Below, piece after piece: positions 1 through 51,800 of a DNA stretch of 64,000 nucleotides (positions within the stretch are counted from its first letter, which is position 1; every line of letters begins with the position of its first letter). The notes beneath the pieces were generated by a model. The model saw only the letters and a program-made list of their open reading frames with translations. It made no database searches and was not told where the DNA came from. Source of the stretch: a virus. The position numbers and the translations under genes were made by a program. Where the stretch lies: positions 17,808-81,807 of the IMG/VR virus record IMGVR_UViG_3300010370_000030. One strand, given 5' to 3'.

Positions 1-465
1 CGCTCAAAAGAGTTCAAACTCGAAGAAGATAACGTAAAAATCCGTTTTCAACGGCTAAAAAAGGACAGTCCACACTATTTGCCCGAGGCAGACGAGCATA
101 ATTATGGTGTTCGCAACGAACGAGTAGCTGGTCCATTGGAAAAAATCCTCGATTCTTTCAAAGCTCCACTGGCAAGAGTCCGTTTTGCAGCAATGGCACC
201 CGGTTTCGAGATCAAACCGCATACAGATTACGACCCAACATACATTACTCGTTTCCATTTACCCATCGTTACTAACGAAAAATGCATGCTCTACGCCGAA
301 TATAAGGGCGTTTTAACAGAAAAACACATGCCAGCCGATGGAAACGTGTATTTTCTCAACACTGGAATCAAGCATTGGGCTGTCAATCATGGCGATACAT
401 GGCGAATTCACCTCCTTATCGACGTGAAAAATCAGGATGACCTTGTAAATCTGAGACCACTTTAA
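1..465 (+). CDS. Aspartyl/asparaginyl beta-hydroxylase-like 2OG-Fe(II) oxygenase (5' truncated)
   Basis: Frame is open from position 1; motifs IKPHTD, RFHLPI, FLNTGIKHWAVN, RIHLLID. Confidence 0.8.
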   Translation, partial: RSKEFKLEEDNVKIRFQRLKKDSPHYLPEADEHNYGVRNERVAGPLEKILDSFKAPLARVRFAAMAPGFEIKPHTDYDPTYITRFHLPIVTNEKCMLYAEYKGVLTEKHMPADGNVYFLNTGIKHWAVNHGDTWRIHLLIDVKNQDDLVNLRPL

Positions 466-26027: not shown

Positions 26028-27815
26028 ATGGCCAATACCAATATTGACTTGGTTGGTTTAGATTTTACAAGTCTAAAAAACAATCTAAAAACATTCTTAA
26101 AGAATAACACGTCCTTCAAAGATCTGGATTACGAAGGATCTAATATCAATGTGCTGCTTGATGTGCTTGCCTACAACAGCTACTTGAATGCGTTTTATAC
26201 GAACATGGTAGCGAGTGAGATGTTTTTAGATAGCGCACAATTACGTGATAGCATTGTTTCACATGCAAAAGAGTTAAATTATGTCCCACGGTCCTTTGTG
26301 TCAGCGAAAGCAACCATCGATGTAACGATTACCCCTTCAGGCAGTACATCATCGGTATTCATTCCTAGAAACACATCGTTTACGTCTCGAGTTGGCTCAA
26401 ATACATTTACTTTTGTCACGAACGACTCATATGTTACAGCAGCCAATGGTGCTAGCTTTGTACAGAGGTTGGATTTATATGAAGGGTCTATCAAGACCGA
26501 GTCGTTTGTCATTAACTATTCAAATACATCGCAACGATTTGTACTCTCTAATCCTACAATAGACACGGCTTCCTTAGAGGTTGTGGTATATGAGGATAAT
26601 GGACAGACAGCATTAGTGTATACGCGTGCAGCGACTCTCTTTAATCTAAGCGAAACGTCAAGAGTGTTCTTTATACAAGCTGCGCAAAATCAACAGTATG
26701 AAATTATTTTTGGTGATGGAGTGTTTGGTCGTAAACCAAAGGATGGTTCAACATTTGTTGCCAAATACAGGGCCTGTTCGGGCGAGTTACCAAACGGGGC
26801 ACGCGTATTTGATGTAGATGGTCCAATCGATGGGCATAGTAATGTAGTAGTTACAACGGTTGATGAGGCCTCAGGAGGAGCAGTTGCTGAATCTATTGAA
26901 TCGATAAGATTCAATGCGCCGCGCTCATTCCAAGCTCAGAATAGAGCCGTTACTGCAACTGATTATGAGACGTTACTCAAATCTCAATTTTCTGACATAC
27001 AATCAATAAGTGTGTATGGTGGTGAAGACAGTGACCCACCTCAGTATGGAAAAGTATTTGTATCAGTCGACGTTGCACAGGCGGATGGTGCGCCCGAGTT
27101 GCGTAAAAAAGCATACTTTGATTTCATTAAAGATAAAACACCACTTAGTATGCAGGTGAATTTTATTGATCCGTTGTTTCTTTATGCTTCGGTTGAAACA
27201 ACTGTTCAGTTTGATGTTAACATGACAACAAAGACAACAAACGACATTGAAACGCTGGTGAAAGCAGCGATTAGCAATTATAACATTACAAAGCTGTCTA
27301 GTTTTAAGAAAATTTTATACTACTCACAATTGGTCAATGCTATTGACAAAGCTGATCCAAGTATAGTTTCAAATGATACTGTTGTTAAAATGATAGCACA
27401 TGTTACACCATCAACGAACGTACCATACCCATTTAGTGTATCGATTAACAATCAAGTTGTTGCTGAAGAGGGAAAAAAGCTAGAGGTAGATGAAACTCAT
27501 TATGGACATGGACTAACAAGTTCCTTTTTTACATATCAAGGTAGTAGATGTTCTCTTGTCGATGATTCGCTCGGAAATGTTCATATAGCTTTGCAAGAGG
27601 GCGAAACGATTCGCATCATTAAAAAAGTAGGAACAATTGATTACACCAAAGGCCGAGTCGTTGTTGAGGAGACGTTTGAAGTCAGTGCCTATGAAGGGAA
27701 TTTTCTTGAGTTAATCTTTAAAACCGTTTCAAAAAATCTCGAAACAAAAAATAATGCCATTCTCAGTATTGACAATCTGGACGTTAACGTAACAGCTGTT
27801 GGTGTCAAGCAATGA
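26028..27815 (+). CDS. gp6: Baseplate wedge gp6
   Basis: LDF..LK.NL, DYEGSN...LLDVLAYN, EMFLDSA, QNRAVTATDY, PPQYGKVF. Confidence 0.96.
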   Translation: MANTNIDLVGLDFTSLKNNLKTFLKNNTSFKDLDYEGSNINVLLDVLAYNSYLNAFYTNMVASEMFLDSAQLRDSIVSHAKELNYVPRSFVSAKATIDVTITPSGSTSSVFIPRNTSFTSRVGSNTFTFVTNDSYVTAANGASFVQRLDLYEGSIKTESFVINYSNTSQRFVLSNPTIDTASLEVVVYEDNGQTALVYTRAATLFNLSETSRVFFIQAAQNQQYEIIFGDGVFGRKPKDGSTFVAKYRACSGELPNGARVFDVDGPIDGHSNVVVTTVDEASGGAVAESIESIRFNAPRSFQAQNRAVTATDYETLLKSQFSDIQSISVYGGEDSDPPQYGKVFVSVDVAQADGAPELRKKAYFDFIKDKTPLSMQVNFIDPLFLYASVETTVQFDVNMTTKTTNDIETLVKAAISNYNITKLSSFKKILYYSQLVNAIDKADPSIVSNDTVVKMIAHVTPSTNVPYPFSVSINNQVVAEEGKKLEVDETHYGHGLTSSFFTYQGSRCSLVDDSLGNVHIALQEGETIRIIKKVGTIDYTKGRVVVEETFEVSAYEGNFLELIFKTVSKNLETKNNAILSIDNLDVNVTAVGVKQ

Positions 27816-30800
27816 GACAGATTGAAGAGTTAATATTCCCGCTTGTTAAAGCTCAATTCCCCGATTTCTATCAGGACGAAGGTCCTCGCTTTGTTTCTTT
27901 TGTTAAAGAATATTACAGGTGGATGGAGACTGAGGGGGAAGCATTAAACGCTTCGCGTAACTTACTTGATTACCGAAATATCGATAGCACGTCAAGTGAT
28001 TTTATAAAATATTTCAAGAACAAATACCTGTCTGGTGTGCCTCTTTCAACAGAAGCAAACACACAACTTGTTATTAAACACGCTCTTGATATCTATAAAT
28101 CCAAGGGAACAGAACGTGGTGTGCAGCTATTGATTCAAGGGCTTTTTAATGAAGAATCAAGAGTTGTTTTTCCCGGTCAGGATATTTTCAAAACATCTGA
28201 CGGCGTATGGATTAAGCCAACGTATCTTGAATTGACGGTTAAAGAAAGAACACAAAGTTTTGTTGGTCAAGAAATCGTAGGTTCGCGGAGTGGTGCTAAG
28301 GCATTTTTAGAAAGTCTCGTAACCAAACGACTTTCGGGCAAGTATCAACAAGTTGCTTATCTGAGTAGTGTCAGGGGTAATTTTGAAACCGGCGAGCTCA
28401 TAACGACGTCGTCAAACACATCTTTTGAAAACGCGCCGACTGTAATAGGGTCAATGACTTCGCTTACAGTGGCCGATGGCGGTGCTAATTTTGCCGTTGG
28501 GGATATTTTTGAAGTAACATCCACAAACGGTAAGCAAGGCAAAGCACGTGTAACCGAGGTTTCAAATGAAACCGGACGTGTCACTTTCATATATGTCGAT
28601 GCATTTACAAGTGGTGGTTGGGGATATAGCATTGACCATGCAAACGTTATCGTATCGGATAAAGTCCTAACTCTCACAAACATTGTTAACGCCAATGGGT
28701 TAATTACTGACTTCAGTCAATTTGAAACTGTTACACAACCTCTAGCTAATATTGGATATAGTACCGCAAGAGGGAACAATTATTATTTTAATGTCGGTAA
28801 CATTATAGAGAACTATAATTCTAATGGTGATGTTGTTGCTAACGCTGTTATAGCGGTTACGAGCAAAACAACAAACACTGTTGGATGGATTATAGTGGTA
28901 CCTAATGTTGGTAACATAGCATCCCAAGACACAACCTTTGCTGTACGTTCACAAGATCCTGATGAATCATCATTCAATCCGTCGTCGATCGGATTTGCTG
29001 AAAATACGTACACGTCTGTTTACAGCAAGACATACTCGAATTTGTTTACAGGTAACTTTTCTCGGTTATTCACTGCCACATATACGTCAGGATATGTGGG
29101 TGTATATGGTAGCACATACAGTTCTGTTTACACACAAGAATATTCCAGTACGTACAGTAGAGTATTTACTTCAGATTCTTATTCAGGTAATTTCGTTGGT
29201 GCTTTCACTAGCGGCGTCTACACGGGTACATATAGTCGAGTATTTACAACAGCTGGAGAAACAGGCTTTACTGGATCGTATTTACAGTACTTCATTGTCA
29301 CCTCACCCTACACAGGCTCTGCATATACATCGGCATTTACGGGTACATATACATCAGCAGGGTTCACAGGAGTATATAACCGTGTTTATACAGGCGACTA
29401 TAATACAGTATTTTCAAGCGCCTATACGGGTACGTTAGTACCAGGGGTTTATACAGGATCGTATGCTGGCTCCTATCTTGGAACATATGAAGGATCTTTC
29501 TCTGGCTCACGACCAAATCCGTTTGCTGGTGGAACATATGGTGGTTCGTATGTGGGACAATTTACTCGTGTATTTGTTGGATCGTATCAGGGCGTATATC
29601 AATCGTCTTATCAAAATCCATACAGCGGTGCAACATTCGCAATAGGAGTTAACTCCTATAATGTACCCAGTTATATTGGTAATTTTACAAAAGCATACAC
29701 AGGTGGATATATTGCATACCCTGTTTATACGGGTCTGAAAGCACTACCATATGGAGGTGTACCAGGAGTTACACAAAGTTATATAGGTGCTGGTTACACA
29801 GGATCTTATCTAGAATCATTCACGGCTAATTACAGTGGTGCATATGGTGGTGATTCATTTTCAAGAATTTTTACAGGATCATATCAGCTCGGTTCATTCA
29901 CAGGAAACTTCACATCTCAGTTTACTGGTAATTTTACTGGTTTGTACGGAGCAGCATACACGGGCACCTACAGTGATGTGTTCACAAACGAGTATGTGGG
30001 CAGTTTTTCACAAACATTCCAGGGCAACTTTACAACAATCTATACAAAAAATTACACAGGATTGTATAATGTCTTTTCCGGTGCCTACACGAGCACGTAC
30101 TCACAAGCATTTACTGCATTTACAGGGCAATATACAGGATTTACAGGGAATTACAGCTTAGCTTTCAGTGGTAACTATAATGCTTTCTCTGGGCAATACC
30201 TTACTTTTTCATTGTCGTTTGGTGGATACAGTTCAGCTTTTAGCGGCGTATATAACAATTCATTCACCAGCGGGTATGGTGGGTATACTGGCATCTTTAC
30301 AAGAACTTACACCAGCACCCAAGGAACAGCAAACGGTGTTATAGCTCAGTATTTTAGCAAAGCATATACAGGGTTATATGCGGGATCGGATTATACAAGC
30401 GCCTTTAATGGTTACACGAGAACATTTACAGTAACGCTTGATGGTGCGTTTACGAGTTCATATAGTGGCCAATTTACAGGCGCTTACGTAGGATACACAG
30501 GAACGTATCTAGCTCGAACATACACGGGCGTTTATGGTGCTTACAGTGGTGTATATCAAGATTCGCTGTTTACAGGTAATTATGGTTTCTTCACAGGTGC
30601 TTTTGGATCAGCCTACACAGGTCTCTTTGTAGGAGGTGGTAGTGCTCGAATAAACACATTAACAGCACATGAATTTAGTAACAACGATCTAGTACGCTAT
30701 CATGTTATGCCCGGTAACACATACATTCCTGAGTTGTCGATAGGAGCAGCATATTATGTTGTGAATGCGGTATCGGGATCAACGAGTTTGTGTTTATCTC

Positions 30801-33256
30801 ATACGCCTAGTGGCACACCTATAGCCCTTACGATTGGATCAAATGAAACAGGTCACAAACTAATTCGTACGTTAGGCACAGCTGTAATCACCTCATATGG
30901 GGATCGAACAGCTACAGGTAATGTCAGTGGATCGAATACAACATCACTTATATACTCTTTCAACGCGCAGACATCCGTATCAAGCGCTGGCGACACAATA
31001 ACAATACCGAGCCATCAGCTTGAAAATAATTACGTCATTTCTTACAGCGTTAATGCAGGTAACACACAGCTTGATGGACTGATTAATAACACAAAGTACT
31101 ACGTTGTTAACACAACAGCATCCACTATCCAACTATCTGCTACCAGAGGTGGATCGCCTCTAGGTATATCAGCGAGTAATAGAAGCGAAAATGGGCATTT
31201 CATAACACACACGACTGGATATGTTGGTGTTGTAGATATATCTGTGAATGGATTCGTTGCATCGGCCCAAACCTACATTCGCGGGTCGACGAGTAACACA
31301 ACAGCCTCAGTAGCGAACGTTAGTACAGGATCAGGAGCTGGTTTTAGTATCGGCCTTTTGACGGATACAGAGAATGTTCTACTATCACCTGACTTTATTA
31401 ATGGGAAAAATACAGGTAATGTGAAGTTTAGCGAAATAAAACTTAACGGTATTGGTTCCAATGTTACCGCTGGTGGATATGGAACGGCAGCTACATTTAA
31501 TGGTAATACTGATATTACAGAAGGAGCAAATGGTACTGGTGTCCTGCTGCCATCACGTATTGAGTTTAATGCTTTGTCAGGTGTTAACAACACAACAAAT
31601 ATTATTACCATCAGCTCACCAGCTAAGCACATCTTTAGTAACAACGAGCAGGTAAAATATCTTGTTACACCAGGTAACACAGCTGTTACAGGTTTAGCAA
31701 ACAACACCAACTATTATGTTGTTAATGCAGTCGCAGGATCGACAACATTACAGCTATCGCTTACTTCTGGTGGTTCACCAATTGATATAACAGCTACCGC
31801 CAATGAGGTTGGGCACTCGCTTACACGACAAGCCACGACCGGATCAAACAACAGTATAGCCTTAAGCACAGCAGTTAATTATTTACCAAATAGTGCTGTG
31901 CATTATAGTCTAAGTGCTGCGAACACGTCTATTAATGGTCTTACACCCAACACCGTGTATTATGTTGATCAGTCAAACGCTACGCATATAACGTTAAAAG
32001 ATTCACCGACAGGTCTACGTATCAATATCCTTAAAGGACCAACCGAATCGGGGCATACGTTATTTGGTCCTCTGAGAATAATCACTGGTGCAAATTCAAC
32101 ATATGATAACGTTGGTTCAGGCGAAGAAATATTCCGTGGTCTTGGTTTTATTAAATTCCCTGGAACGAATCTCGATACAATTCTCCTTGACGCTCTTCGT
32201 TTTGACAGTACCACTATAGGATCTATAGCTTCACTAGTTTCTATTAACCCAGGATCTGATTACAATGTTGATCCGTTTGTAACCGTTGTTGATACGTATG
32301 TTGTTGGATATGACAACCGTGATTATGTCATGCAAATTAACACTACAGTTGGTGCATTTGTTGTTGGTGAGCAGATACAACAATCATATAGCAATGTAGC
32401 AACACAACTAACCGTTACAGGATTCACAGGTACGGCTGCGAACGGTGTTGGAACTTCGACATTTATCATAAATGAGTTTGTTTATCAAAGCAATTCAACA
32501 GCAAACGTAGCAGCATCTGGATATGTAGTTGAAGCTGCGATAAGTGCTGGCGCTGGAACATTAAAAGTTAAAAATGTAACCGGTACGTTTGTTAATAATG
32601 CGCCGTCTTACCCTCTAAAAGGATTATCGTCAGGATCAACATCTAATGTTACACTAGTAACGGCAACAACACTTGCCACTACTGCTAGAGCACTTGTTAA
32701 ATCAGCGAACTCATCAGTACTTAAATTAAAGCGTATCAATTTAGAAAACACCTTCCTCGATGGTAATCCAATTATAGGTCGTTCGTCTGGTGCAACAGCA
32801 AATGTTGTTGGTGTTGTTGAGGATGCAAACGCTGTACCAGTTGGTTTAAATGCATCAATAGAAGCCAATGTTCAAACAGCTAACAATGTTGTGAAAAAAC
32901 TTGCTGTTGCTGATTCGGGTTTTGGATATCTTGATCGTGAACCAGTTACTTTGACGATGTCCAACTCCGCGTTCAGCGTGACTGCTGTTGTTGAGCTTGG
33001 TAAACAAGGCGTTGGCCAAGGATATTATGGTTCGACGAGAGGATTTTTAAGTAATGATAAGAAACTGCAGGATAGCGAATTTTATCAAGAGTACAGTTAT
33101 GAAGTACAAACAAAGGTACCGTTTGATAGATATTTCGATGTCTTGAAAAGAGTTACACACGTAGCTGGGACAAGAGCATTTGGTAGAGTTATTTCTCTTT
33201 CGCTGGCAAACTTAGAAATGACTGCTATAAATACTATCGAAACCTCGAACACGTAA
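27812..33256 (+). CDS. gp7: Baseplate wedge gp7-like protein with large insertions
   Basis: QFP.F, F...YY.WME, YKSKGT, C-terminal LQDS.FYQEYSYEV; sits between gp6 and gp8. Confidence 0.85.
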   Translation: MRQIEELIFPLVKAQFPDFYQDEGPRFVSFVKEYYRWMETEGEALNASRNLLDYRNIDSTSSDFIKYFKNKYLSGVPLSTEANTQLVIKHALDIYKSKGTERGVQLLIQGLFNEESRVVFPGQDIFKTSDGVWIKPTYLELTVKERTQSFVGQEIVGSRSGAKAFLESLVTKRLSGKYQQVAYLSSVRGNFETGELITTSSNTSFENAPTVIGSMTSLTVADGGANFAVGDIFEVTSTNGKQGKARVTEVSNETGRVTFIYVDAFTSGGWGYSIDHANVIVSDKVLTLTNIVNANGLITDFSQFETVTQPLANIGYSTARGNNYYFNVGNIIENYNSNGDVVANAVIAVTSKTTNTVGWIIVVPNVGNIASQDTTFAVRSQDPDESSFNPSSIGFAENTYTSVYSKTYSNLFTGNFSRLFTATYTSGYVGVYGSTYSSVYTQEYSSTYSRVFTSDSYSGNFVGAFTSGVYTGTYSRVFTTAGETGFTGSYLQYFIVTSPYTGSAYTSAFTGTYTSAGFTGVYNRVYTGDYNTVFSSAYTGTLVPGVYTGSYAGSYLGTYEGSFSGSRPNPFAGGTYGGSYVGQFTRVFVGSYQGVYQSSYQNPYSGATFAIGVNSYNVPSYIGNFTKAYTGGYIAYPVYTGLKALPYGGVPGVTQSYIGAGYTGSYLESFTANYSGAYGGDSFSRIFTGSYQLGSFTGNFTSQFTGNFTGLYGAAYTGTYSDVFTNEYVGSFSQTFQGNFTTIYTKNYTGLYNVFSGAYTSTYSQAFTAFTGQYTGFTGNYSLAFSGNYNAFSGQYLTFSLSFGGYSSAFSGVYNNSFTSGYGGYTGIFTRTYTSTQGTANGVIAQYFSKAYTGLYAGSDYTSAFNGYTRTFTVTLDGAFTSSYSGQFTGAYVGYTGTYLARTYTGVYGAYSGVYQDSLFTGNYGFFTGAFGSAYTGLFVGGGSARINTLTAHEFSNNDLVRYHVMPGNTYIPELSIGAAYYVVNAVSGSTSLCLSHTPSGTPIALTIGSNETGHKLIRTLGTAVITSYGDRTATGNVSGSNTTSLIYSFNAQTSVSSAGDTITIPSHQLENNYVISYSVNAGNTQLDGLINNTKYYVVNTTASTIQLSATRGGSPLGISASNRSENGHFITHTTGYVGVVDISVNGFVASAQTYIRGSTSNTTASVANVSTGSGAGFSIGLLTDTENVLLSPDFINGKNTGNVKFSEIKLNGIGSNVTAGGYGTAATFNGNTDITEGANGTGVLLPSRIEFNALSGVNNTTNIITISSPAKHIFSNNEQVKYLVTPGNTAVTGLANNTNYYVVNAVAGSTTLQLSLTSGGSPIDITATANEVGHSLTRQATTGSNNSIALSTAVNYLPNSAVHYSLSAANTSINGLTPNTVYYVDQSNATHITLKDSPTGLRINILKGPTESGHTLFGPLRIITGANSTYDNVGSGEEIFRGLGFIKFPGTNLDTILLDALRFDSTTIGSIASLVSINPGSDYNVDPFVTVVDTYVVGYDNRDYVMQINTTVGAFVVGEQIQQSYSNVATQLTVTGFTGTAANGVGTSTFIINEFVYQSNSTANVAASGYVVEAAISAGAGTLKVKNVTGTFVNNAPSYPLKGLSSGSTSNVTLVTATTLATTARALVKSANSSVLKLKRINLENTFLDGNPIIGRSSGATANVVGVVEDANAVPVGLNASIEANVQTANNVVKKLAVADSGFGYLDREPVTLTMSNSAFSVTAVVELGKQGVGQGYYGSTRGFLSNDKKLQDSEFYQEYSYEVQTKVPFDRYFDVLKRVTHVAGTRAFGRVISLSLANLEMTAINTIETSNT
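29005..30630 (+). repeat. [YF]-[TS]-G-x tetrapeptide repeat tract inside gp7 (about 540 aa)
   Basis: Aromatic residue roughly every 4th position, e.g. YTGTYSRVFT, FTGNFTSQFTGNFTGLY. Confidence 0.9.
33226..33233 (+). promoter_or_regulatory. T4-type late promoter TATAAATA
   Basis: Exact motif about 30 nt before the gp8 start. Confidence 0.7.
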
Positions 33257-33264
33257 CAATAAAG

Positions 33265-35028
33265 ATGACAACACAACTTATCACCAATTATTTTCGTCTC
33301 CATAATGTTAATCAATTTAAAGAGTCGATAAACGAAACAGCAAACAGCGTATACTATGTGTTTGCGGCTCGACATACACCATACGCAAGTGGAGATGGTA
33401 CTGTTGCTAGCATTACCAATAGCGTCGAAGAAACGATGACCAATCCTTATGAAGAAATGGTCTTTGGCAAAAGAGTCTCTGCAAATGATGTCGCTGTAAT
33501 GATACCTAGGTATGTGTGGACATCCAATACACAGTATTCTGCATACCGAAGTAATGAAGATCTCAACGATAAACAGTTCTTTGTATATGTCGATGAAGGG
33601 TCCTCATATAGTGTGTTCAAATGTTTGGACAACAACGGTAATGCCTACTCGACATATGCGCCTTCTATTAGTGAAACTTCGCCCGATGATGAGTACTATG
33701 CAACGAACGATGGGTATCAGTGGAAGTTCATGTATTCAATTACTCCTACACAGTTTGACAAATTTGCAACTTCAGATTTGATACCTGTATTTGCAAACAC
33801 CCAAGTTGTAGGCAATGCAGTCTCTGGTGCTATTGAAGTTATAGGTGTTACTTTCAAAGGATCCAATTACAACACAACGTTGAGTGGTATATTTGAGTCG
33901 GACGATGTTCGTATTGGTGGTGACTCCACGCTTTATTACATAGCTAACAGTGCATCATCAGCAAATAATTTTTATACAGGCAGTTATATTTACTTAACTG
34001 CTGGTACAGGAGCTGGACAAGGTCGACGCATAGTCGATTACTCCGTCATTGGTGGTTCAAAAACCATTACATTAAGTGAACCGTTTACAGTTAACCCTGT
34101 CGGTGGTACTGAGTATGAAATTACTCCAGCTGTTGTTATAGAAGGGGATGGAAATGACGCTGAAGCTCGAGCTATTGTTAACACAACTTCTTCCAATTCA
34201 ATATCACGAGTAGAAATTATCAACCGGGGTAGTGGTTATACATGGGCTTCAGCAACTGTCACAGGTAATACAGGGGGCATATCGAATAATGCAACTCTCC
34301 GTGTTGATAGGGGACCTAAAGGTGGTCATGGTTCAAATCCTGAATACGAACTTATAGGTACGGCTTTAGGAGTAAGTGTTACGTTTGCCAACAATGAAGT
34401 CGGTACAATACCGACAGAAAATGATTATAGAACTTTTGGTTTAATAAAAGATCCATTATATGCAAACGTTGTCTGTACGCTTACGTCACCAAATGGTTCT
34501 TTCACGGTCGGTGAGCTCGTAACACAAAATGTTTCGAATGCGTCTGGCTATGTTACAGAGTGGGATACTATTAGTACTTTGTCCTTGACGAATGTTAGCG
34601 GGGTTTTCGTTACTTCGCAAGTTGTAACTGGTGCTACTTCGGATGCTGAAGGCACAGTAAGTACGTATCAAATAAACGGACAAGCAAAGAATTTCAATAC
34701 ATTCGATCAGCGTTATCGTTATACCTTTCTACCAATCAGCGGTACCTTTCAACAAGATGAAGTTGTATATCAAACAGATCTACAACTTGCAAATGCCATT
34801 TTCCACAGCAACACGTCAACAAATCTATATGTAACACACGTCAAAGGTGTGCTAAATACAGGTAACACTTTGATAGGGATCAATTCAACAGCAACGGCAA
34901 ACTTACTATTTGCTTATGCGCCTGATCTAGTTAAACATTCTGGTGAAGTAGTGTATGTAGAAAATGAGACACCAATCACGCGATCCAATTCTCAATCAGA
35001 AACCATCAAGCTAATTTTGCAGTTTTGA
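33265..35028 (+). CDS. gp8: Baseplate wedge gp8
   Basis: M.FGKRV, IPR..W, VFKCLDN, DGYQWKFMY, PKGGHG, YR.FGLIKDP, SGEVVYVEN..PITR..Q.E.IKLILQF. Confidence 0.92.
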   Translation: MTTQLITNYFRLHNVNQFKESINETANSVYYVFAARHTPYASGDGTVASITNSVEETMTNPYEEMVFGKRVSANDVAVMIPRYVWTSNTQYSAYRSNEDLNDKQFFVYVDEGSSYSVFKCLDNNGNAYSTYAPSISETSPDDEYYATNDGYQWKFMYSITPTQFDKFATSDLIPVFANTQVVGNAVSGAIEVIGVTFKGSNYNTTLSGIFESDDVRIGGDSTLYYIANSASSANNFYTGSYIYLTAGTGAGQGRRIVDYSVIGGSKTITLSEPFTVNPVGGTEYEITPAVVIEGDGNDAEARAIVNTTSSNSISRVEIINRGSGYTWASATVTGNTGGISNNATLRVDRGPKGGHGSNPEYELIGTALGVSVTFANNEVGTIPTENDYRTFGLIKDPLYANVVCTLTSPNGSFTVGELVTQNVSNASGYVTEWDTISTLSLTNVSGVFVTSQVVTGATSDAEGTVSTYQINGQAKNFNTFDQRYRYTFLPISGTFQQDEVVYQTDLQLANAIFHSNTSTNLYVTHVKGVLNTGNTLIGINSTATANLLFAYAPDLVKHSGEVVYVENETPITRSNSQSETIKLILQF

Positions 35029-41602: not shown

Positions 41603-41832
41603 ATTATCGTCCAGATACAAGCGACTCTAATTATATTCGAGATCCTCTGTCCAAAGCTGTTCTAAATATTGATATGGCAGGATATGAACGGTTCAAAACG
41701 GAACGAGACTTCATACTAAGGCAGCAACAACTTGAAAATAGTGTGCATGATCTTAAAAAAGACTTGAATGAATTCAAAGACTTGATTAAACAGTTAATTA
41801 ACGGAAACACAAATGGCAAGACCAATAGCTAA
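41599..41832 (+). CDS. Small coiled-coil virion-associated protein
   Basis: RDPLSKAVLNID followed by heptads; GTGA coupling. Confidence 0.7.
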   Translation: MNYRPDTSDSNYIRDPLSKAVLNIDMAGYERFKTERDFILRQQQLENSVHDLKKDLNEFKDLIKQLINGNTNGKTNS

Positions 41833-43885
41833 TGTTGTTATATCTACGGATTCATTTGCAACGTGGATTGGTATTACTAATCGGATAGCGGACACTATTA
41901 CGACGCAGGCCTTAACAGCAAACAATACCGCTAATGGGGCTAATGTTTCTGGTAATTCACAACTGATAGGTATTTTTGCTGCAAACACTATAGCTGCTGG
42001 CACAACCCTACGTGGTGGTACAGTTAACGCATCGGCTAATTTAAATGTAACATCAAATGCTTACTTTACAGGAAGTAATACGGCATTTGCTAGCAACGTT
42101 GCCATCTACAATTCGACAGGATATTTTTATTCAAACACACAAACGTTTTACGTAGCTGGTACACTTGCCAATGTAACCGCAAACAGCTACTTTAATTCCA
42201 ACTTCTTCATTGCAAACACGGTTATAAACCGTGTACAAGGTGGTGGATTTCAAGTAACTTCAAACACACTACTTTCTTCAGCTAATGTGTTTGTTAACGC
42301 AACGGCAACAACAATACAAAACGGCCAGGCGACAATAACATCTAACGTCTCTATTGAGAATACAAATACCAATATTAATGCAACAGCTTTTGGTGTTCAA
42401 GGTGTTAGCACTATAACAGGTAACACTACATTAAAAGGTAATACATCTACTAATAGTATTCAGCTCACTGGCAATTCGACTGTAACAGCTTTATCGGTAA
42501 GTGTCAACAGCGCTTCTGTTGTGGGTAATTTGGCTGTGACAAATGCTACTTCGTTATCCAATACGTTATCTATTAGTGGCAACACAACGATATCAAACAC
42601 GTTAGTTGTTACTGGTAATGTAACGTTCTCAAATACCCTATCAGTTGTTGGTGCAGCTACACTGTCGAATACATTAGCCGTGACAAATGCAGTAACTTTG
42701 TCAAACACGTTGTTGACGGTAGGTAATGTAACGTTTTCGAATACATTAGCTGTAACCGGTGCTGTCACAATGTCTAATACGCTAGCCGTGACAAATGCAG
42801 CTACGTTTTCAAATACAGTATCCGTTACTGGTAATGCTACGTTTTCAAACACAATATCTGTTACGGGCGCTGCAACACTTTCAAATACACTGGCAGTGAC
42901 AAATGCGGCAACATTATCTAACACGCTGTCTGTTACTGGTAATGTTGCGTTTTCAAACACATTATCCGTTACAGGTAATACTACATTATCAAACACATTA
43001 GCTGTAACTGGTGCTGTAACGTTATCAAATACATTAGCCGTTACAGGTACTGGGACGGTGAACGGTGCATTCACCGTTAACAATACAGCTTCTGTAGGCA
43101 ACACAACAATAACAGGATTTGTTAACGTATCATCAACGGCAAATGTTGGTGGTAATGTAAATTTAAGAGGCACTCTCACTGTTAACGGTGCTGTGACAGT
43201 ACCTAATACATTAGCTGTAGGAAATACTAGTGTTACTGGTTTTGTGTCTGTGACACAAACATTGGGTGTAACTAACGCTGTTACTTTCTCCAACACACTA
43301 GCGGTCACGGGTAATGTAACGTTTTCTAATACGTTAGCGGTTACAGGTGCAACGACTTTATCTAATACGTTAGCTGTTATAGGTAATGCGACGTTCTCAA
43401 ATACAATATCCGTCACTGGTAACGCAACATTCTCAAATACGATATCTGTAACCGGTAATACTACGCTATCAAATACATTAGCCGTAACAGGTGCTACGAC
43501 TCTATCGAACACACTCAGTGTTGCTGGTAATACAACACTCCAAACAGATCTTGAATTGTGCGTTGTATCGACTACACTTAATACAGTCACTGTAACTCCA
43601 CAAGATGTGTTGGTGTTAACAAAGCCTGTAGGATATAGAGCTGCAAAAATAACTGCAGCAGTGACAAGTCAAAGTGGTGCCAATGTATCAACACAGGAAA
43701 TGATCCTCGCACATTCAGCTTCTGCTAATGATGTAACATTGACAATTTATGGTACAGTAGCTGCTCCAGCAACAGCTAATCTGGGTAGTTTTTCTGCTGC
43801 TATAAATACAACAGCACTAGCGCTAAAGTTTCAACAAAACGGTGCTAGCTCGCTTGTAAAAATGTTCATTCAGTTTATCAAATAA
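41813..43885 (+). CDS. Fibre-like protein with 12-aa VTG(N/A)xT(L/F)SNTLA repeats
   Basis: DSF.TW...TN N-terminus; more than 20 dodecapeptide units. Confidence 0.75.
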   Translation: MARPIANVVISTDSFATWIGITNRIADTITTQALTANNTANGANVSGNSQLIGIFAANTIAAGTTLRGGTVNASANLNVTSNAYFTGSNTAFASNVAIYNSTGYFYSNTQTFYVAGTLANVTANSYFNSNFFIANTVINRVQGGGFQVTSNTLLSSANVFVNATATTIQNGQATITSNVSIENTNTNINATAFGVQGVSTITGNTTLKGNTSTNSIQLTGNSTVTALSVSVNSASVVGNLAVTNATSLSNTLSISGNTTISNTLVVTGNVTFSNTLSVVGAATLSNTLAVTNAVTLSNTLLTVGNVTFSNTLAVTGAVTMSNTLAVTNAATFSNTVSVTGNATFSNTISVTGAATLSNTLAVTNAATLSNTLSVTGNVAFSNTLSVTGNTTLSNTLAVTGAVTLSNTLAVTGTGTVNGAFTVNNTASVGNTTITGFVNVSSTANVGGNVNLRGTLTVNGAVTVPNTLAVGNTSVTGFVSVTQTLGVTNAVTFSNTLAVTGNVTFSNTLAVTGATTLSNTLAVIGNATFSNTISVTGNATFSNTISVTGNTTLSNTLAVTGATTLSNTLSVAGNTTLQTDLELCVVSTTLNTVTVTPQDVLVLTKPVGYRAAKITAAVTSQSGANVSTQEMILAHSASANDVTLTIYGTVAAPATANLGSFSAAINTTALALKFQQNGASSLVKMFIQFIK
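42530..43535 (+). repeat. Degenerate 36-bp coding repeats
   Basis: Recurrent TCAAA(C/T)ACATTAGC.GT.AC.GG units. Confidence 0.85.
43801..43808 (+). promoter_or_regulatory. Possible late promoter TATAAATA
   Basis: Exact motif inside the upstream gene, about 85 nt before the next start. Confidence 0.5.
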
Positions 43886-43893
43886 GGTAAGTA

Positions 43894-45687
43894 ATGGCTG
43901 ATACGTCAAGCAATGTTCAATTTAAGGTTGAAAATGGTCTCCTTGTTTTAGGTACCGCTAACGTTGCTGGACCAGTGGTGTTCAATGGCAACGTTGACAT
44001 TAACGGGTCATATCTTTCTGTTACGGCAAACCTTCAAAGTAGCCTGATCCCATTAAATAACACCTATTCACTTGGTAACGCAACGTCGCGCTGGGCATTG
44101 AGTGCAATGGGTGGTAGCTTCGTTGAAAGTGTTTCAGTTACCAACACCTTATCAACAGGTAATACAACAATAACCGGCTTTGTGAACGTATCTTCCACAG
44201 CAAACATTGGTGGTGCAACAACACTAAGAGATACGTTGACTGTTGACGGTGCTGTAACGATCGCCAATACCCTAGCTACAGGTAATACGTCCATAACTGG
44301 TACATTGGCAGCCAACGATACAACTATAACAGGGTTTGTTAATGTATCTTCAACAGCCAATGTCGGTGGCGCCACGTCGTTACGAAGTACACTGGTTGTA
44401 AACGGTGCTGTAACAATAGCCAATACGTTAGGTACAGGTAACACATCTATAACAGGGTTCGCAACAGTATCCACAACCCTCACAGTTACTGGAGCAACGA
44501 CACTTTCTAATACGCTCTCTGTAACAGGAAACACTACTCTTTCAAACACGCTAGCTGTCACTGGTAATACATCTCTTTCTAATAGTTTAATCGTAACTGG
44601 TAACACAACCTTATCCAATACGCTGGCTGTAACTGGTAACGTCGTTCTATCGAACACGATAGCTGTTACTGGTAACGTGACGTTTTCTAATACGTTAGCG
44701 GTTACAGGTAATGCTACTTTTTCAAACACTATTAATATTGCAGGTATCGCGACCTTACGTAGTGCTGCCAATGTGGTTGGAGCAGCTGCAGCCTTCAATG
44801 CATTGACAGGGGTTGCAAACACGACGGAGTTCATCACCACAACAGCAGCACATGGCTTTAGTAATGGTGATCTGGTTCAGTACATTGTATCGACTGGCAA
44901 TACAGCTGTGACAGGTCTTGCAAATGGAACAAGCTACTACGTGGTTGAGGCAAATTCAACCGCATTTAAGTTATCCACGTCGTATGGTGGATCAGCCATA
45001 AATCTAACCGCCAGTGCTAGTGAAGTTGGACACACTCTTACGCCCCAACGAATTGTTCTATCAACGAATGGTAATATTGACAGTTCGTTAGGATTAGCTA
45101 ACGTTGGCTCTTTACGTGTATTAGGGACCGCTGTTGTAAACGGTGCAGTAACGCTAGCTAGTACGTTAGGTGTTAATGGAGCAGCAACATTTTCAAACAC
45201 ATTATCCGTAACAGGTAATGCGACCCTGTCAAACACGCTTGCTGTTACTGGTGCAACGACGCTATCAAATACACTTGTTGTTTCGGGTGACGCAACATTT
45301 GACACAGATTTGCTTTTCATTGATGCAGTAAACAATAGGATTGGATTTAAGAACACATCACCAAGTTCAACCGATCTAATAACTATATCTGGTAACACAG
45401 TACTTACTGGTTTAAGTGCAGCTATTCGTTTCCTATCGTCAAACGCAACACATAATGCGTCTATTACAATAGCCGGTAACGCAACAAATACACGTACGAC
45501 GTTTACTACATACGAAGCGAACGCAACAGCAAGTGACGGTGGTTTTATTTTCCAGGCAGCAAACGGAACAACAACCACATCTGTTCTAGCTTTTAATCAA
45601 ACTGAGCTAAAGTATAAAACTGGTAATGTTGCACATGCAGGAAATTTTGGGATTTACGATGTGAACGGTACGCGGCTAGGACCATGA
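43894..45687 (+). CDS. Fibre-like protein with 12-aa repeats and one gp7-type HGF..GD.V.Y module
   Basis: FKVENGL N-terminus; VTGNTTLSNTLA repeats; HGFSNGDLVQY...YYVV...FKLS. Confidence 0.75.
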   Translation: MADTSSNVQFKVENGLLVLGTANVAGPVVFNGNVDINGSYLSVTANLQSSLIPLNNTYSLGNATSRWALSAMGGSFVESVSVTNTLSTGNTTITGFVNVSSTANIGGATTLRDTLTVDGAVTIANTLATGNTSITGTLAANDTTITGFVNVSSTANVGGATSLRSTLVVNGAVTIANTLGTGNTSITGFATVSTTLTVTGATTLSNTLSVTGNTTLSNTLAVTGNTSLSNSLIVTGNTTLSNTLAVTGNVVLSNTIAVTGNVTFSNTLAVTGNATFSNTINIAGIATLRSAANVVGAAAAFNALTGVANTTEFITTTAAHGFSNGDLVQYIVSTGNTAVTGLANGTSYYVVEANSTAFKLSTSYGGSAINLTASASEVGHTLTPQRIVLSTNGNIDSSLGLANVGSLRVLGTAVVNGAVTLASTLGVNGAATFSNTLSVTGNATLSNTLAVTGATTLSNTLVVSGDATFDTDLLFIDAVNNRIGFKNTSPSSTDLITISGNTVLTGLSAAIRFLSSNATHNASITIAGNATNTRTTFTTYEANATASDGGFIFQAANGTTTTSVLAFNQTELKYKTGNVAHAGNFGIYDVNGTRLGP

Positions 45688-45688
45688 A

Positions 45689-48600
45689 ATGGCAAGACCA
45701 CTTAGAGCAAGATATGTTACAGCAAGTACAAGTGATGGTGTTCAGGAGATGTCGGATAGTGACATCAATGACCTTGTTATTCCTAGGATAACCAACTTAT
45801 TTTACGCTGCATCGAATACATCCGGCTACGGTAACAAACTCGAACTAAGAACTACACCACCAACTTGGAATTATGTTACTGGTGGGACTGTTCTTGATGT
45901 GTTTCCAACAGCTTTACCACCCATCGGGACACATCCAGTAACTTCTTCGTCAACAACATACACGTTGTACCAAAATCTTGACACTGCATTGACAACAAAC
46001 TTTGATCTTATAACCAAACCTGTTAAAACAGAGGCAAGTGGCGGTGTTCAAAAAATCCAGCAATTCTCAAACAATGATATTAGAGACGATATTCACAGCA
46101 AAGTTATTGCCGAAATATCTGCTGGAGCACAGGGAGCTTACTGGCTTGGAACTTCGCCACCAGGAACAGGCACGTGGATTATCGTATCTTCGATAAACGA
46201 CACGTTTGTCAACTCAACAAGCAACAGCACGCAAACAACTACATACAATTTATATCAGCGTTCTACAAATAGTGGGTATGGTACTAAGAGACCTCTAAAA
46301 GGTACAGCGAACGCTCTTACAGAAATGTCTGATGCTGAAATCGACACTATGGCAGCGGCTATACGTGATTGTATTGCGGCTGGGATTGGAAGGTATCAGA
46401 TATCCGCAACAACACCGACACCAGGAACGTGGGTAGCCCGTGGTTCTTTCACAGATACACAGAATGGTATTGTTGATACACCGTATGCAGGTAGTTACTT
46501 AGGAGTATTCACTGGAGCATTTACTGGAGAATATAGCCGGGCCTTCAGTGGAAATTATGCTGGATCATATAATCAAGCGTTTACTGGTAACTTCATTGAT
46601 ACCTCACGGTTTACCGGGACGTATCAGGGAACGTATCAGAATACGTTCACAGGCGTGTATTCAAGAGCGTTCTCAAGAGAAACAACAACAGGATTTACCG
46701 GAATTTACCAAAACACATACTCGGGTACATACTCGGGTGTATATACAGGAGCCTACACCAGAGCATACGCTGGTACATATTCCGGGCTATATCAAGGCGC
46801 TTCATTTGCAGGATCATATGATAACACGTTCGCAGGTTCATATGACCGCGCATTTACAGGATCTTTTGATAGAGTATATGCAGGTTCATATGACCGCGCA
46901 TTTACAGGATCTTTTGATAGAGCATATGCAGGTTCATATGATCGCGTGTTTGCAGGATCATATGACCGTACGTTTACCTTTGAATGGAGTGGTTCTTACA
47001 GTGGCGCAGCGTTTGCAGGGTCATACGACCGTGCGTTTGCAGGGTCATACGACCGTGCGTTTTCGGGCAATTACACCAGAACATACACGGGATGGTATAC
47101 AACACAATGGACAAGAAATTATGCAGGCGGCTATGCTGGCCCAGCCTGGACTTTATCATACACAGGAACAAGGGAATATTCCTTTTCTCGAGTGTTTCAG
47201 ACATTGGTTCCGGTAGGAGTCAATGGGCCGGTTTATACAAGAAATTTCTTTGCGACAGAATTTACTAAAGGAACAACAGGAATCTTTACACAAGATCTCC
47301 AGTATTATAGAACTGGTTATTTTACCAGTGAAGTAAATCGAACGTTTACCGGTGATTACACAGGAAATTTCACAGTCGATTACACCGGTACATACTCACG
47401 TAATTTTTCAGGTACACGTGAAGGAATAACTTATGGGAGCACGTTTTCAGGCGTGTATGCTTTATTTAATTATACCGGGGACTTCACAAAAACAGCTCAA
47501 TTCTCAGGCATTGCCTACACGAGGAAATTTACTAGAAGTTATCAAGCGATCTTCGCAACTCAATACACAAGGACGTTTACAGGTTCTAGGGATAAATCTT
47601 ATTTAAACCCTTATAATAGCACATACTACTCAGGATCGTACGCCGGATCATATGCAGGTTCTGAAGCGTATGGAGGAGCTCCTTATTACACGGGGCTTCG
47701 CGATAGCGCTAGCTACTCAAGAGCCTTCACGGCAACATGGAGTGGTTTGAATGATGGTGAGGTGTACGCGCGTGCGTTCACAATCCTTGAAAGCTATTGG
47801 TTCTTTACCGCTACAAACTATACAAAAACATGGGCCGGTACATATACAGGGGCATTCAGTGGATTCTCATACGCACGTGTTTTCCAAAGGATATTTTCTG
47901 GTGCATATTCAAGACCATATGCAACAACTTATTCACGAGTTTTTACAAGATTTGTTCCAATATATTGGACGGCTATCTATTCAAGAGTCTTCAGTGGCGA
48001 TTATACGGCCACATACACAAGGGATTTAACGGCTACATATACCGCAACTTGGTCAAGAATTTTTGCAGGCGATTATACAAGTCCATACCCTTCATATCAA
48101 GCTACATTCACAGGGTCGTATACAAAGAACGAAACCTTTGCCTCGCCAATATTCCAAGGATTTTCGGGATCCTATGATCGCGTGTGGTCGGGCGATTATA
48201 CCCGAGCGTTTTCTGGTGATTATACTCGTGCGTTTTCTGGTAATTATACGCGAAATTACACTGGTGCATATACAGGCGATTACACACGCGCGTTTTCAGG
48301 AGATTATACCCGAGCGTTCTCAGGAGATTATACCCGAGCGTTCTCAGGAGATTATACTCGCGCATTTTCAGGCGATTATACCCGAGCGTTCTCAGGAGAT
48401 TATACCCGAGCGTTCTCTGGCAACTACACACGTGCGTTCTCAGGTAGCTATACGAGAACATACACGGGTAATTGGACCGGAGAATTCAACTCCACGTTTT
48501 CTGGGCCATATGTAGGATCCTTTATAGGTAGTTACATTGGATATTGGACGGGTGTTTATTCGCGGATATTCACCGGAGCATATACAGGAGAGTTTACAGG

Positions 48601-48829
48601 TGGGTTTATCGGTAATTTCACAGGTGGTTATGTAGGAACATACTCACGCATATTCACAGGTGCATACACAGGTCAATTCACTGGCATCTATACCGGGGCA
48701 TTTACAGGCGCATTCAGTGGTAATTATGCAAATAATTTTACACGTTTATTCACAGGGGCATACTCAGGCTTAACGGTCACCGGCACTACGACGACGACTA
48801 CATACACATTATGGGTTAGAACAGCTTGA
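45689..48829 (+). CDS. Giant tetrapeptide-repeat virion protein A (1046 aa)
   Basis: Three RPL..QEMS..DI..GTW..DT..LYQ modules; about 760 aa of [YF]xxx repeats; ends YTLWVRTA. Confidence 0.85.
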   Translation: MARPLRARYVTASTSDGVQEMSDSDINDLVIPRITNLFYAASNTSGYGNKLELRTTPPTWNYVTGGTVLDVFPTALPPIGTHPVTSSSTTYTLYQNLDTALTTNFDLITKPVKTEASGGVQKIQQFSNNDIRDDIHSKVIAEISAGAQGAYWLGTSPPGTGTWIIVSSINDTFVNSTSNSTQTTTYNLYQRSTNSGYGTKRPLKGTANALTEMSDAEIDTMAAAIRDCIAAGIGRYQISATTPTPGTWVARGSFTDTQNGIVDTPYAGSYLGVFTGAFTGEYSRAFSGNYAGSYNQAFTGNFIDTSRFTGTYQGTYQNTFTGVYSRAFSRETTTGFTGIYQNTYSGTYSGVYTGAYTRAYAGTYSGLYQGASFAGSYDNTFAGSYDRAFTGSFDRVYAGSYDRAFTGSFDRAYAGSYDRVFAGSYDRTFTFEWSGSYSGAAFAGSYDRAFAGSYDRAFSGNYTRTYTGWYTTQWTRNYAGGYAGPAWTLSYTGTREYSFSRVFQTLVPVGVNGPVYTRNFFATEFTKGTTGIFTQDLQYYRTGYFTSEVNRTFTGDYTGNFTVDYTGTYSRNFSGTREGITYGSTFSGVYALFNYTGDFTKTAQFSGIAYTRKFTRSYQAIFATQYTRTFTGSRDKSYLNPYNSTYYSGSYAGSYAGSEAYGGAPYYTGLRDSASYSRAFTATWSGLNDGEVYARAFTILESYWFFTATNYTKTWAGTYTGAFSGFSYARVFQRIFSGAYSRPYATTYSRVFTRFVPIYWTAIYSRVFSGDYTATYTRDLTATYTATWSRIFAGDYTSPYPSYQATFTGSYTKNETFASPIFQGFSGSYDRVWSGDYTRAFSGDYTRAFSGNYTRNYTGAYTGDYTRAFSGDYTRAFSGDYTRAFSGDYTRAFSGDYTRAFSGDYTRAFSGNYTRAFSGSYTRTYTGNWTGEFNSTFSGPYVGSFIGSYIGYWTGVYSRIFTGAYTGEFTGGFIGNFTGGYVGTYSRIFTGAYTGQFTGIYTGAFTGAFSGNYANNFTRLFTGAYSGLTVTGTTTTTTYTLWVRTA
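46817..47075 (+). repeat. 24/48-bp tandem repeats encoding (AGSYDRAF)n
   Basis: GCAGGTTCATATGACCGCGCATTT / ACAGGATCTTTTGATAGAG units. Confidence 0.85.
48190..48445 (+). repeat. 24-bp tandem repeats encoding (SGDYTRAF)n
   Basis: TCAGGAGATTATACCCGAGCGTTC repeated with synonymous changes. Confidence 0.92.
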
Positions 48830-48835
48830 GAGAAA

Positions 48836-51800
48836 ATGTCACTTCGTCCACTCTACTATAGCACATCGTTATCTGGTTTACAGGAGATGTCCAACACGGA
48901 CATTGATGGTTATATTGTAAACGTGATTGGTACCGATTTTGCTTCAACGGAAGATATTGGATCTCTTATAGTTCAAGATCCAGGTGACCCGGTTCCCGCT
49001 AATTCTACTTCTATTGGTACATGGGCCGATACACACTATGATCAACAAATAGGTGATCATCCTGTTTCCGAAGCAAACCTCGTCTATTCAAACACGACCA
49101 TTTATCAAAGAATGAGTGGTGGGCCTTTGGCTGATCCATTTATGGTGCGTCCTATTTGCTGGAATGATACACTAAATGGATTACAGCAGATGGCGAACGC
49201 TGATTTAGACACGACCATTATTGCAAGAGCTGTTTCGTATATTGTCAATGGAGGTGTGGGGTCATATGTTTTGCAACCTTCAGCACCAGCAAGTGGCACG
49301 TGGGTTGCGCGAGGACGTCTTAAAAATACAGAGCGTCCATATTATGCTAATGAAACGTTTCTATGGCAAAAAACGTCTGAAAGTCCAAGTGGTTCTGTAA
49401 AGCCTTTGAAATGGAATGTTGGTGCTGTGCAAGAAATGTCGAACAATGACATTAAAACATTAACACACCGAGCAAGGAATTACATTGCTTCAACAGGAAT
49501 AGGGACATATCAGTTATCAACAAGTACTCCTACTTCCGGTGGTACGTGGGTTGAGGCAGGTAGCGGATTTGCTGACACGCGTCAAGAAATAAGACCACAA
49601 ACTTACAATGCTCAAGTGTACACAGCAACTTTTTCTGGTGCATACACGGGAGCATTTACAGGCCAATATCAAGGCAATTTTACTGGGACGTATGGCATTC
49701 CGTACACCCGTGATTTTACAGGTTCATTTGTTGATACGTTCACAGGCGTATTCAACCAACAATTTACTGGTGCTTTTACTGGTGGATATGCTACGGCTTA
49801 TACTGGTTCATTTAATCAAGAGTTCACCGGCCAATTCACAGGCACATATACAGGTGGTTACACCGGTACTTTTATCGGATCGTACACGGGTGATTATATA
49901 GGGCAATTTACAGGAGCTTATTCCTCACCGTATGTTGGGAGCTTCACTGGTACATATGCTGGAAAGTTTAACCAGGAATTCACGGGAGCATTCAGTGGAT
50001 TTTACCAAGGTACGTACAATCAAAATTTTACGGGCGATTTTGTTGGTGGGTTTACGGGTGAGTTCTCAGGTAAGTATGCCCAGGAATTCACAGGGTCTTA
50101 TAGCTCTAACTTTACAGCAGCTTATAGTGGTGCGTTTACGGGTCAGTTTACAGGATTATATGCAAACACATTTACAGGCGAGTTCGTAGGCAAGTATGTA
50201 GGATTTTTCACTGGCGTATACTCAACCACGTATGCTAATACTTTTACCGGTAGTTACACGGGCATATACACCGGTGCCTACAGTCTGGCTTTTACTGGAG
50301 ACTTCACTGGATTATTTAATCAAGTATTTGTAGGAAACTACGCTGGTAAGTATGCAGGAACTTTCGACTATCCGTTCTCAGGTACGTTTGTTGGTACATA
50401 CAGCAATGTATTCTCTGCAGTATATACGGGTAATTACACAGGCATTTATAATCAACAATTCACTGGTGCGTTCACAGGTATTTTCAATCAGATCTTTACG
50501 GGCGAGTTCGTTGGTAAGTATTCGGGAGATTATAACCAAACATTTACGGGAGATTTCGCTGGAACATATAGTAGATTGTTTACCGGAAGCTATACGGGTA
50601 ACTATACAGGTGTATACAATCAGGTCTTCACAGGCTCTTTTGCCGGTAAATATGCAGGATCTTTCACAGGTGCGTTTGCTGGTGGATACACGGGATCATT
50701 TACTGGATCCTATACAGGTGCTTATACAGGGTTGTATTCAGGTGCATATGCAGGAAGTTATCAAGGTAATTTCACAGGTGATTATACAACCGCAGCCGTA
50801 ACAAATTTACTAGCATATTCCGATAGCCTCGATGGTGGTGCCTGGCAAGGATATTGTGCAGCTAATATGAACAACGTCACGTACAAGACGACAGACATCC
50901 TTGCACCGGACGGTACATACAATGCCTTGAAAGTTGTTATGGATGGAAGCACAACGTGTGGTGGTGGCGGTACATGGGGTATGTTGTACGGAGCTTCGCA
51001 GATCTTTACATCAGGGCAACCATATACAGTAAGTATTTGGGCGCGATGTGCCACAGGTACAACAGGTATGCAATTAGGTTTGAACGACTATTACAGTACG
51101 GGTGTTACACTAACTACATCGTGGCAGCGTTTTTCTTTTACAGCGACACCGACAGGACCAGGGGCACCATTAGATCGAGGTCTTCAATTTGTGCGTCATG
51201 ATTCAACACCCGGTGTTACAATTTACGTATGGGGTGCTCAGCTTGAGACCGGTAGCACAATGTCGCGGTACGTACAAACAAGCACTACATCAGCCACATC
51301 ACCGGCAGGAACATATGTCGGGACTTTCACTGGGCCTTATTCGGGTAGTTATACGAGGGCCTTTACCGGAGCATACACTGGCATATATGCAGGTGGCTAT
51401 GTAGGATACTTCACAGGTGGTTATACTGGTGGTTATGTTGGCTCGTTCACAGGAATTTACTCTGGTGGATACACGAGAGCCTTCTCAGGAATTTACACGG
51501 GTTCTTACACAGGAACGTATGCCGGAACATACACAGGATTATACTCTGGTGGATATGTTGGTTCGTTTACTGGGATATACTCTGGTGGGTATGTTGGTTC
51601 ATTTACTGGGATATACTCTGGTGGGTATAGCAGGCTGTTCACTGGAGTTTATACTGGTTCCTACACAGGAACATATGCCGGAACATACACGGGAATATAT
51701 TCCGGTGGTTATGTTGGATATTTTACAGGTGATTATGCAGGTGGGTATGTTGGATATTTTACAGGTGGTTATGCAGGTGGGTATGTTGGATATTTTACAG

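Follow-up and report, generated by a model that had tools for sequence, protein, structure and literature searches.

An aromatic-glycine tetrapeptide tract inserted in a loop of the baseplate wedge protein gp7 of an uncultured T4-like phage

Wedge proteins of the phage baseplate are usually viewed as a conserved chassis. How does such a protein carry a very long, fast-evolving repeat appendage, and what shape may the appendage take? The question is raised by an open reading frame (ORF) at 27812-33256 of a 64-kb sequence, hereafter the window (the whole stretch of DNA analysed, 64,000 nucleotides), which is part of the 81.8-kb IMG/VR virus record IMGVR_UViG_3300010370_000030 (~36% complete). 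The ORF lies on the plus strand, as do all of its features named below, and its product of 1814 amino acids (aa) is, on the grounds of homology and gene order, gp7 of an uncultured T4-like phage. From aa 395 to 945 (28994-30646), this chassis protein has taken up a tetrapeptide-repeat tract of 551 residues with the consensus [YF]-[TS]-G-x, a length that an earlier note, made from the sequence alone, had put slightly too low at about 540 aa.

A tract lodged in the loop of a small module

The 551-aa tract is an insertion between the first and second strands of the first copy of a small module. gp7 holds four copies of this ~95-aa module, and a hidden Markov model (HMM) was built from the second (aa 1040-1137, 30929-31222) and the third (aa 1242-1342, 31535-31837). 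A divergent fourth copy (aa 1347-1417, 31850-32062) scores 21.8 bits (E 7e-9), while in the first copy the part behind the tract (aa 945-1021, 30644-30874) covers HMM positions 27-104 with 59.5 bits (E 1e-20). The first strand of this copy is SFNPSSIG (aa 387-394, 28970-28993), directly in front of the tract; its eight residues are too short for an HMM score of their own, and they align with the xFNxxxV motif that opens copies 2 and 3 as well as with the unbroken modules of relatives. The module copies and the aromatic-glycine tract described in the earlier note were borne out, and both SFNPSSIG and RINTLTAHEF, the latter beginning at aa 946 after the tract, are located as it had claimed.

Natural alleles tell what the module looks like without the tract. 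Through a gp6 anchor we fetched 80 related IMG/VR loci and examined the gene that follows gp6 in every one of them. Seven tract-less relatives (L020, L023, L024, L029, L030, L036 and L043) hold an unbroken module (HMM positions 12-103) at aa ~385-471, exactly at the SFNPSSIG site of the window. In L020 the sequence ..SFNASLV-GASLITTTAAHTFSNN.. is contiguous, with nothing between the two strands (FNASLV-GASLITT), and because of this no more than a few residues can separate the two ends of the tract. About 255 aa stand at the insertion point in L009, L011 and L019, which are closest to L020, and across the relatives the tract at this site measures 240-256, 366-378 or 512-552 aa. The tract is a self-contained add-on, present at 240-552 aa or absent without disturbing the host domain, and the relatives provide natural controls with none, 250-aa, 370-aa or 550-aa tracts in otherwise near-identical proteins. 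Whether the flanks rebuild the module once the tract is removed, a check that had been proposed as an in silico deletion, could be answered positively from the natural tract-less alleles instead. The claim of a loop insertion with close N and C ends likewise holds, given the contiguous L020 and an AlphaFold2 (AF2) model of L011 in which the flanks align to one barrel.

Two AF2 runs, both monomer predictions, covered the window protein (aa 340-1030, 16 sequences) and L011, a short natural form (aa 340-733, 14 sequences). In the window model the rest of copy 1 (aa 945-1021) reaches a predicted local distance difference test (pLDDT) value of about 75, and in the L011 model, where the module likewise has a pLDDT of about 75, the N-flank is predicted as a strand. 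When low-confidence stretches of the L011 model were trimmed, its range 44..389 aligned onto single contiguous barrel domains of ~85 residues, among them 9mc4_A (Z 6.4, root-mean-square deviation (rmsd) 3.1 A over 81 residues), with a Z that falls within the noise band of the tool. The same applies to the small beta-barrels of the PDB that resemble the module (EF-Tu domain 2, UBA1 FCCH class; Z 4.6-6.4, in the noise band), which makes the fold class a lead only. The module has no Pfam match, even at E 10, and no PDB sequence match. Models in BFVD superpose on the module (rmsd 1.6-3 A over 70-85 residues, 20-32% identity), and many of these matches are annotated as tail fiber or baseplate wedge initiator of cyanophages. 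The interrupted copy is an accessory domain that sits just behind the conserved N-terminal wedge part and that, with low confidence, we take for a small beta-barrel.

To follow the history of the insertion, a quick maximum-likelihood tree was built for gp7 residues 1-375 (69 rows). In it, one group (SH-aLRT, the Shimodaira-Hasegawa-like approximate likelihood-ratio test, 99) unites all gp7 proteins with a mid-gene tract; its one tract-less member is L020, nested in this clade beside L019 (SH-aLRT 99). The sister group of the tract clade has an intact module and no tract. The simplest reading would be one gain of the tract into a pre-existing module and one clean loss in L020, assuming that the N-terminal tree is valid for the middle part of the gene as well. 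A second gp7 clade (L051, P0013, P0014 and P0022) carries the same type of tract at the extreme C-terminus. Free C-terminal tetrapeptide tracts were observed in L051 (gp7 aa 1076-1385) and also in P0013, P0014, P0015, P0022 and P0026.

The tract is also found outside gp7. As the earlier note had stated, it occurs three times in the window, the other two in the adjacent proteins A and B encoded at 45689-48829 and 48836-55105. The A/B-type proteins share with the gp7 tract the [YF]-[TS]-G-x repeat, the NP[YF]xG landmarks and the regular arms around an irregular centre. The string YQNPYSG, said to be common to gp7 and protein B, turned out to be exact only in gp7, protein B having YQNPFSG and FQDPYSG. 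In the A/B-type proteins the tract appears to occupy the final loop of a small domain, a host domain different from that of gp7. In both window proteins, the third of the N-terminal ~95-aa modules breaks off at HMM position ~69-81 of 95, and the last residues of the proteins (..TYTLWVRTA) align to HMM positions 75-87, a stretch too short for significance alone; most other tract-bearing proteins end alike in ..TYTL[WY]VR... Since the tract is found in a gp7 loop, at the C-terminus of gp7 in another, sister clade, and in proteins of A/B type, its description as portable is upheld.

Two records whose gp7 has no tract, those of L016 and L021 (G002 and G003), encode two adjacent A/B-type proteins of 683+1379 and 502+1725 aa. 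Neither the gp7 tract nor A/B-type proteins occur in two complete genomes at a greater distance, those of the L076 and L081 records. Since tract-less gp7 relatives keep the A/B pair, the A/B family would predate the gp7 tract and probably gave rise to it. In a profile-free scan of 1.84 billion representative proteins, only 88 matched at E<=0.001, most of which start like proteins A and B of the window and end in ..TYTL[WY]VR..; among 50,697 phage records, a similar tract was found only in Phage C48C1, in one long hypothetical protein.

Composition, anatomy and divergence of the tract

The tract is rich in G (16%), T (15%), Y (14%), S (13%) and F (9%), with 28 charged residues and no His or Cys among its 551. 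Of 128 distances between successive aromatic residues, 88 equal four, where shuffled sequences give 13.6 +/- 3.5. In the DNA of the tract, tandem repeats are nearly absent, and the 4-residue period of gp7 is therefore maintained at the protein level. The two repeat genes downstream differ in this: their tracts are young at the level of DNA, with many tandem repeats of 24-192 nt. No Pfam family matches the tract even at E 10, including Gly-zipper_YMGG (PF13441), for which protein B gives a sub-threshold match, and phmmer against all PDB chains returned 0 matches at E<=10, so that solved fibre tips share no sequence similarity with it. Searches of the literature, Pfam and PDB found no published description, family or solved structure of the tetrapeptide repeat, and the ESM Atlas entry of the protein holds no structure model and no feature matches. 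A paper on "tentaclin" proved unrelated to the tract.

The tract consists of two units. Unit 1 (aa 395-759) is built of two proline-free arms of ~100 aa around an irregular, proline-containing head, and unit 2 is optional. The N-arm (aa 395-493, 28994-29290) has in-phase runs of 56|12|24 residues, and the C-arm (aa 662-759, 29795-30088), with runs of 20|12|60, mirrors it. Between them, the head (aa 494-661, 29291-29794) carries NP[YF]xG motifs and all nine prolines of the tract (within aa 499-651), while proline is found at 0 of the 383 residues of the arms and unit 2, compared with 2.9% in the rest of gp7. Unit 2 (aa 760-932, 173 aa, 30089-30607) is dispensable: it is missing exactly from P0005 and P0006 and almost exactly from P0010 and P0011, and its presence or absence varies in three sub-lineages of the gp7 tree. 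P0005 is 96% identical to the window gp7 outside the tract and differs by this one deletion of aa 760-932.

Relatives repeat this plan at other lengths. Arms measured from the start of the tract to the first head proline, and from the last head proline to the end of unit 1, are 102/106 residues in the window, 100/108 in L055, 95/101 in L008 and 107/111 in L009, and the in-phase runs read 56|40 ... 32|60 in P0010, 52|36 ... 32|56 in L008, and 100, head, 96 in L011. The head ranges from ~37-50 aa in short natural forms to ~155-165 aa in long ones. The tract gains length in its head or through the addition of a separate block, and not inside one arm.

Sequence divergence is 3-8 times faster in the tract than elsewhere in gp7 (63-80% against 85-97% identity). 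Compared with L006 and L004, the ratio of nonsynonymous to synonymous substitution rates (dN/dS) is 0.13 in the tract and 0.02-0.04 in the rest of gp7, and dN within the tract is 0.018 for aromatic codons and 0.13-0.23 for the other classes. Six close sequences keep Y, F or W at all 86 aromatic columns, with 40 of 60 Gly columns and 35 of 128 other columns invariant, and, if the lack of unit 2 in two of them is set aside, show only 0-1 small insertions or deletions (indels) in 551 residues. Such a combination of fixed scaffold, free surface and fixed length argues for a folded structure over a disordered loop. Positive selection was not seen at the pairwise level, where the top class reaches a dN/dS of 0.26. 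In the same comparison with L004 and L006, dS is 0.9-2.0 in the tract (28994-30646) and 0.35-0.6 in the flanking gp7 codons, i.e., 2-4 times higher, which hints at exchange between alleles or a mutation hot spot and not at positive selection. A diversity-generating retroelement was considered as the cause of the fast divergence and not retained, with no RVT_1 (reverse transcriptase) match on the 81.8-kb, ~36%-complete record.

A fold-back stalk and its alternatives

The reading we favour, with slightly better than even confidence, is that unit 1 forms an out-and-back stalk that starts from the gp7 accessory barrel and bears a variable tip, unit 2 being an optional block at its base. Unit 1 would exit the domain as a regular, strand-like arm, turn in the head and return along the first arm, and the outcome would be a thin stalk, up to about 30 nm long by our own estimate if it is a fully extended beta-strand, with aromatic residues and glycine alternating on one face and Thr/Ser and variable residues on the other. 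The register breaks of unit 1 point this way: their mirror score (F1 0.74) has its centre at aa 575 (SRPNPFAGG) in the head, and is exceeded rarely by shuffles (p about 0.01 for run shuffles and 0.03 for local shuffles), while a translational control stays at chance (p 0.58). For the entire 551-aa tract the mirror score reaches only p 0.12, and a single hairpin across all of it is ruled out by P0005 and P0006, which lack only the C-proximal 173 aa. The sequence evidence indicates a symmetric stalk-and-head architecture with matched arm lengths; strand-to-strand pairing is not part of the claim. The hairpin model of the earlier note survives in its coarse architecture, namely equal proline-free arms, a proline-containing head and growth at the tip, and falls where it would span the entire tract as one hairpin or require a rigid mirror, which is not significant, or a family-wide signal, most of which is lost.

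Several points weigh against the fold-back stalk. A rigid residue-by-residue mirror in unit 1 of the window, whether aromatic is set against aromatic or against glycine, does not rise above shuffles (p 0.5-0.7). Among A/B-type tracts, the mirror signal is seen in 27 of 57 at p<=0.05 under global shuffles and drops to 5 of 57 when local density is kept, and it is because of this shrinkage that we claim coarse symmetry only and not pairing. The covariation of arm lengths rests on four lineages, and L017 (40|36 versus 104) and L019 lack mirrored breaks. The sister gp7 clade has its tract at a free C-terminus, where the ends need not meet. In both AF2 runs the tract has a pLDDT of about 25 and is modelled as ~20-residue strands or coil, with no two long strands. 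We know of no precedent for an isolated two-stranded ribbon of this length.

The tip of the T4 long tail fibre, gp37, whose structure was reportedly determined by Bartual and colleagues in 2010, is the closest published analogue of the gp7 tract. Its collar domain D10 consists of residues 811-881 and 1010-1026 (PMC6957217), and from this split it follows that the needle stretch with the tip, D11, lies inside D10. As in gp7, a small domain is made from two chain segments; between them a long and thin excursion goes out to a tip and back, as is proposed for the gp7 tract. For the gp37 stem, packing of a glycine against an aromatic residue is reported (G921/F970; PMC6957217). The two differ in other respects. 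The gp37 needle is about 130 residues long and trimeric, with seven His-coordinated iron ions, whereas the gp7 tract, at 551 residues, is four times longer, follows a strict 4-residue period and, devoid of His and Cys, lacks the HxH iron-binding repeats of the gp37 stem. Unlike the trimeric gp37, gp7 is a monomer per wedge in T4.

There is one gp7 per wedge in T4. From homology with T4 gp7 only, we infer that the tract may decorate each wedge, as the earlier note had also proposed, and by this analogy six projections would ring the baseplate. A fast-evolving surface rich in Tyr, Ser, Thr and Gly at the baseplate suggests contact with the host surface, and the projections might make early, probably weak, multivalent contacts there; function is the least supported step of the proposal. 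A bolder version takes the tract for a new kind of fibrous fold, in which one chain forms a two-stranded aromatic/glycine ribbon of tens of nm, with a length set by repeat number; this ribbon could be grafted into any beta-hairpin loop or terminus of virion proteins, the six gp7 copies acting as host-contact filaments with exchangeable tips. This we put forward tentatively and consider doubtful. Were the fold-back stalk true, it would offer a simple, length-tunable scaffold for protein design. With the natural alleles at hand, the structure of an undescribed repeat type and its effect on adsorption become directly testable, and for structural work the short forms, which measure about 360 aa when the host domain is counted in, offer a practical target.

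Of the alternatives, the one that survives best, although we hold it unlikely, is that the tract is a disordered, sticky low-complexity loop which forms a brush or gel around the baseplate and has no fixed fold, comparable to the Tyr/Gly/Ser regions of FG-nucleoporins or of FUS type. The pLDDT of about 25 over the whole tract in two AF2 runs would be expected from such a loop, as would the G/S/T/Y-rich composition with few charged residues and the fast divergence from the rest of gp7, and placement in a loop or at a C-terminus would need no special geometry. A disordered chain is harder to reconcile with the near absence of indels at 63-80% identity under an invariant aromatic register, with the purifying dN/dS of 0.13, with the equal arm lengths, and with proline being kept out of about 380 residues of arms and unit 2, yet present in the head. 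Moreover, the tract remains alignable among relatives at 35-43% identity over 91-100% of its length.

An improbable alternative is that unit 1 folds compactly, as an antiparallel beta-meander or a closed barrel with strands of ~20 residues; its first and last strands would then be neighbours, and the two ends would meet in this way too. It takes its support from the AF2 model of the window, where ten strands (8-24 residues, most of about 20) extend over aa 402-751, which corresponds to unit 1, while unit 2 is coil; VIA-align relates this model to outer-membrane barrels (FadL, 1t16_A, Z 7.3, rmsd 6.2 A over 219 residues; BrkA, 3qq2_A, Z 7.0). A Z of 6-7 is the noise band of the tool and the model has a pLDDT of about 25, the L011 model did not repeat the pattern of ~20-residue strands, and in-phase runs of 56-100 residues without a break or proline are hard to fit with a turn every ~20 residues. 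For the Z and pLDDT values just given, an identity as an outer-membrane barrel was not adopted.

A little less probable still is that the gp7 tract acts as a like-with-like dock, zipping onto the repeats of 45689-48829 and 48836-55105 and anchoring these proteins to the wedge. The same repeat type does occur in three virion-module proteins of one phage, and an aromatic/glycine ladder face may suit face-to-face packing; against this, the L016 and L021 records encode the A/B pair without a gp7 tract, so A/B-type proteins can do without it, and L020 has lost the tract. As an obligatory dock for A and B in particular, the gp7 tract is weakened by these relatives that have A/B-type proteins and no gp7 tract. 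That the tract is an artefact (chance low complexity, assembly error, non-coding or mobile DNA), to which only its odd composition would lend itself, can be regarded as already refuted by a frame open for 1814 codons, by the colinear occurrence of the same tract on many independent contigs from several sources, by clear purifying selection and by a record on which no reverse transcriptase was found.

The gp7 locus and other repeats of the window

The assignment of the ORF to gp7 is based on its profile matches and its neighbours. The profile phrog_17744 ("baseplate wedge subunit") matches aa 1-422 with E 9.8e-163, and PF23786 gives a weak match of 18.7 bits, under its cut-off of 27. The gene directly adjoins a gp6 homologue on one side (26028-27815; phrog_219, E 8e-151) and a gp8 homologue on the other (33265-35028; phrog_438, E 1e-84), in the order gp6-gp7-gp8. 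Among named phages, Sinorhizobium phage phiM12, Caulobacter phage Cr30 and Stenotrophomonas phage DLP6 come nearest; they have this order in common with the window, and in them the N-terminal ~380 aa and the C-terminal part of gp7 are homologous; their gp7 proteins, of 767-1288 aa, contain neither the ~95-aa module nor the tract. In two related contigs the gp7 reading frame stops early, at 456 aa in L025, where the protein diverges within module 1, and at 168 aa in L063; these early ends could be due to a frameshift, a sequencing error or a broken gene.

Further observations concern the repeat genes downstream. In protein B (2089 aa) the repeat tract is broken at aa ~645-825 (50768-51310) by a globular island of ~180 aa (..WGAQLETG..), which by eye looks like a domain of jelly-roll or carbohydrate-binding type and would be a domain nested in the repeat. 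The two ORFs 41813-43885 and 43894-45687 contain, at 42591-45289, tandem repeats of 36 and 108 nt with a period of 12 aa (..LSNTLAVTGN..); this repeat looks fibre-like and is of another kind than the tetrapeptide tract.

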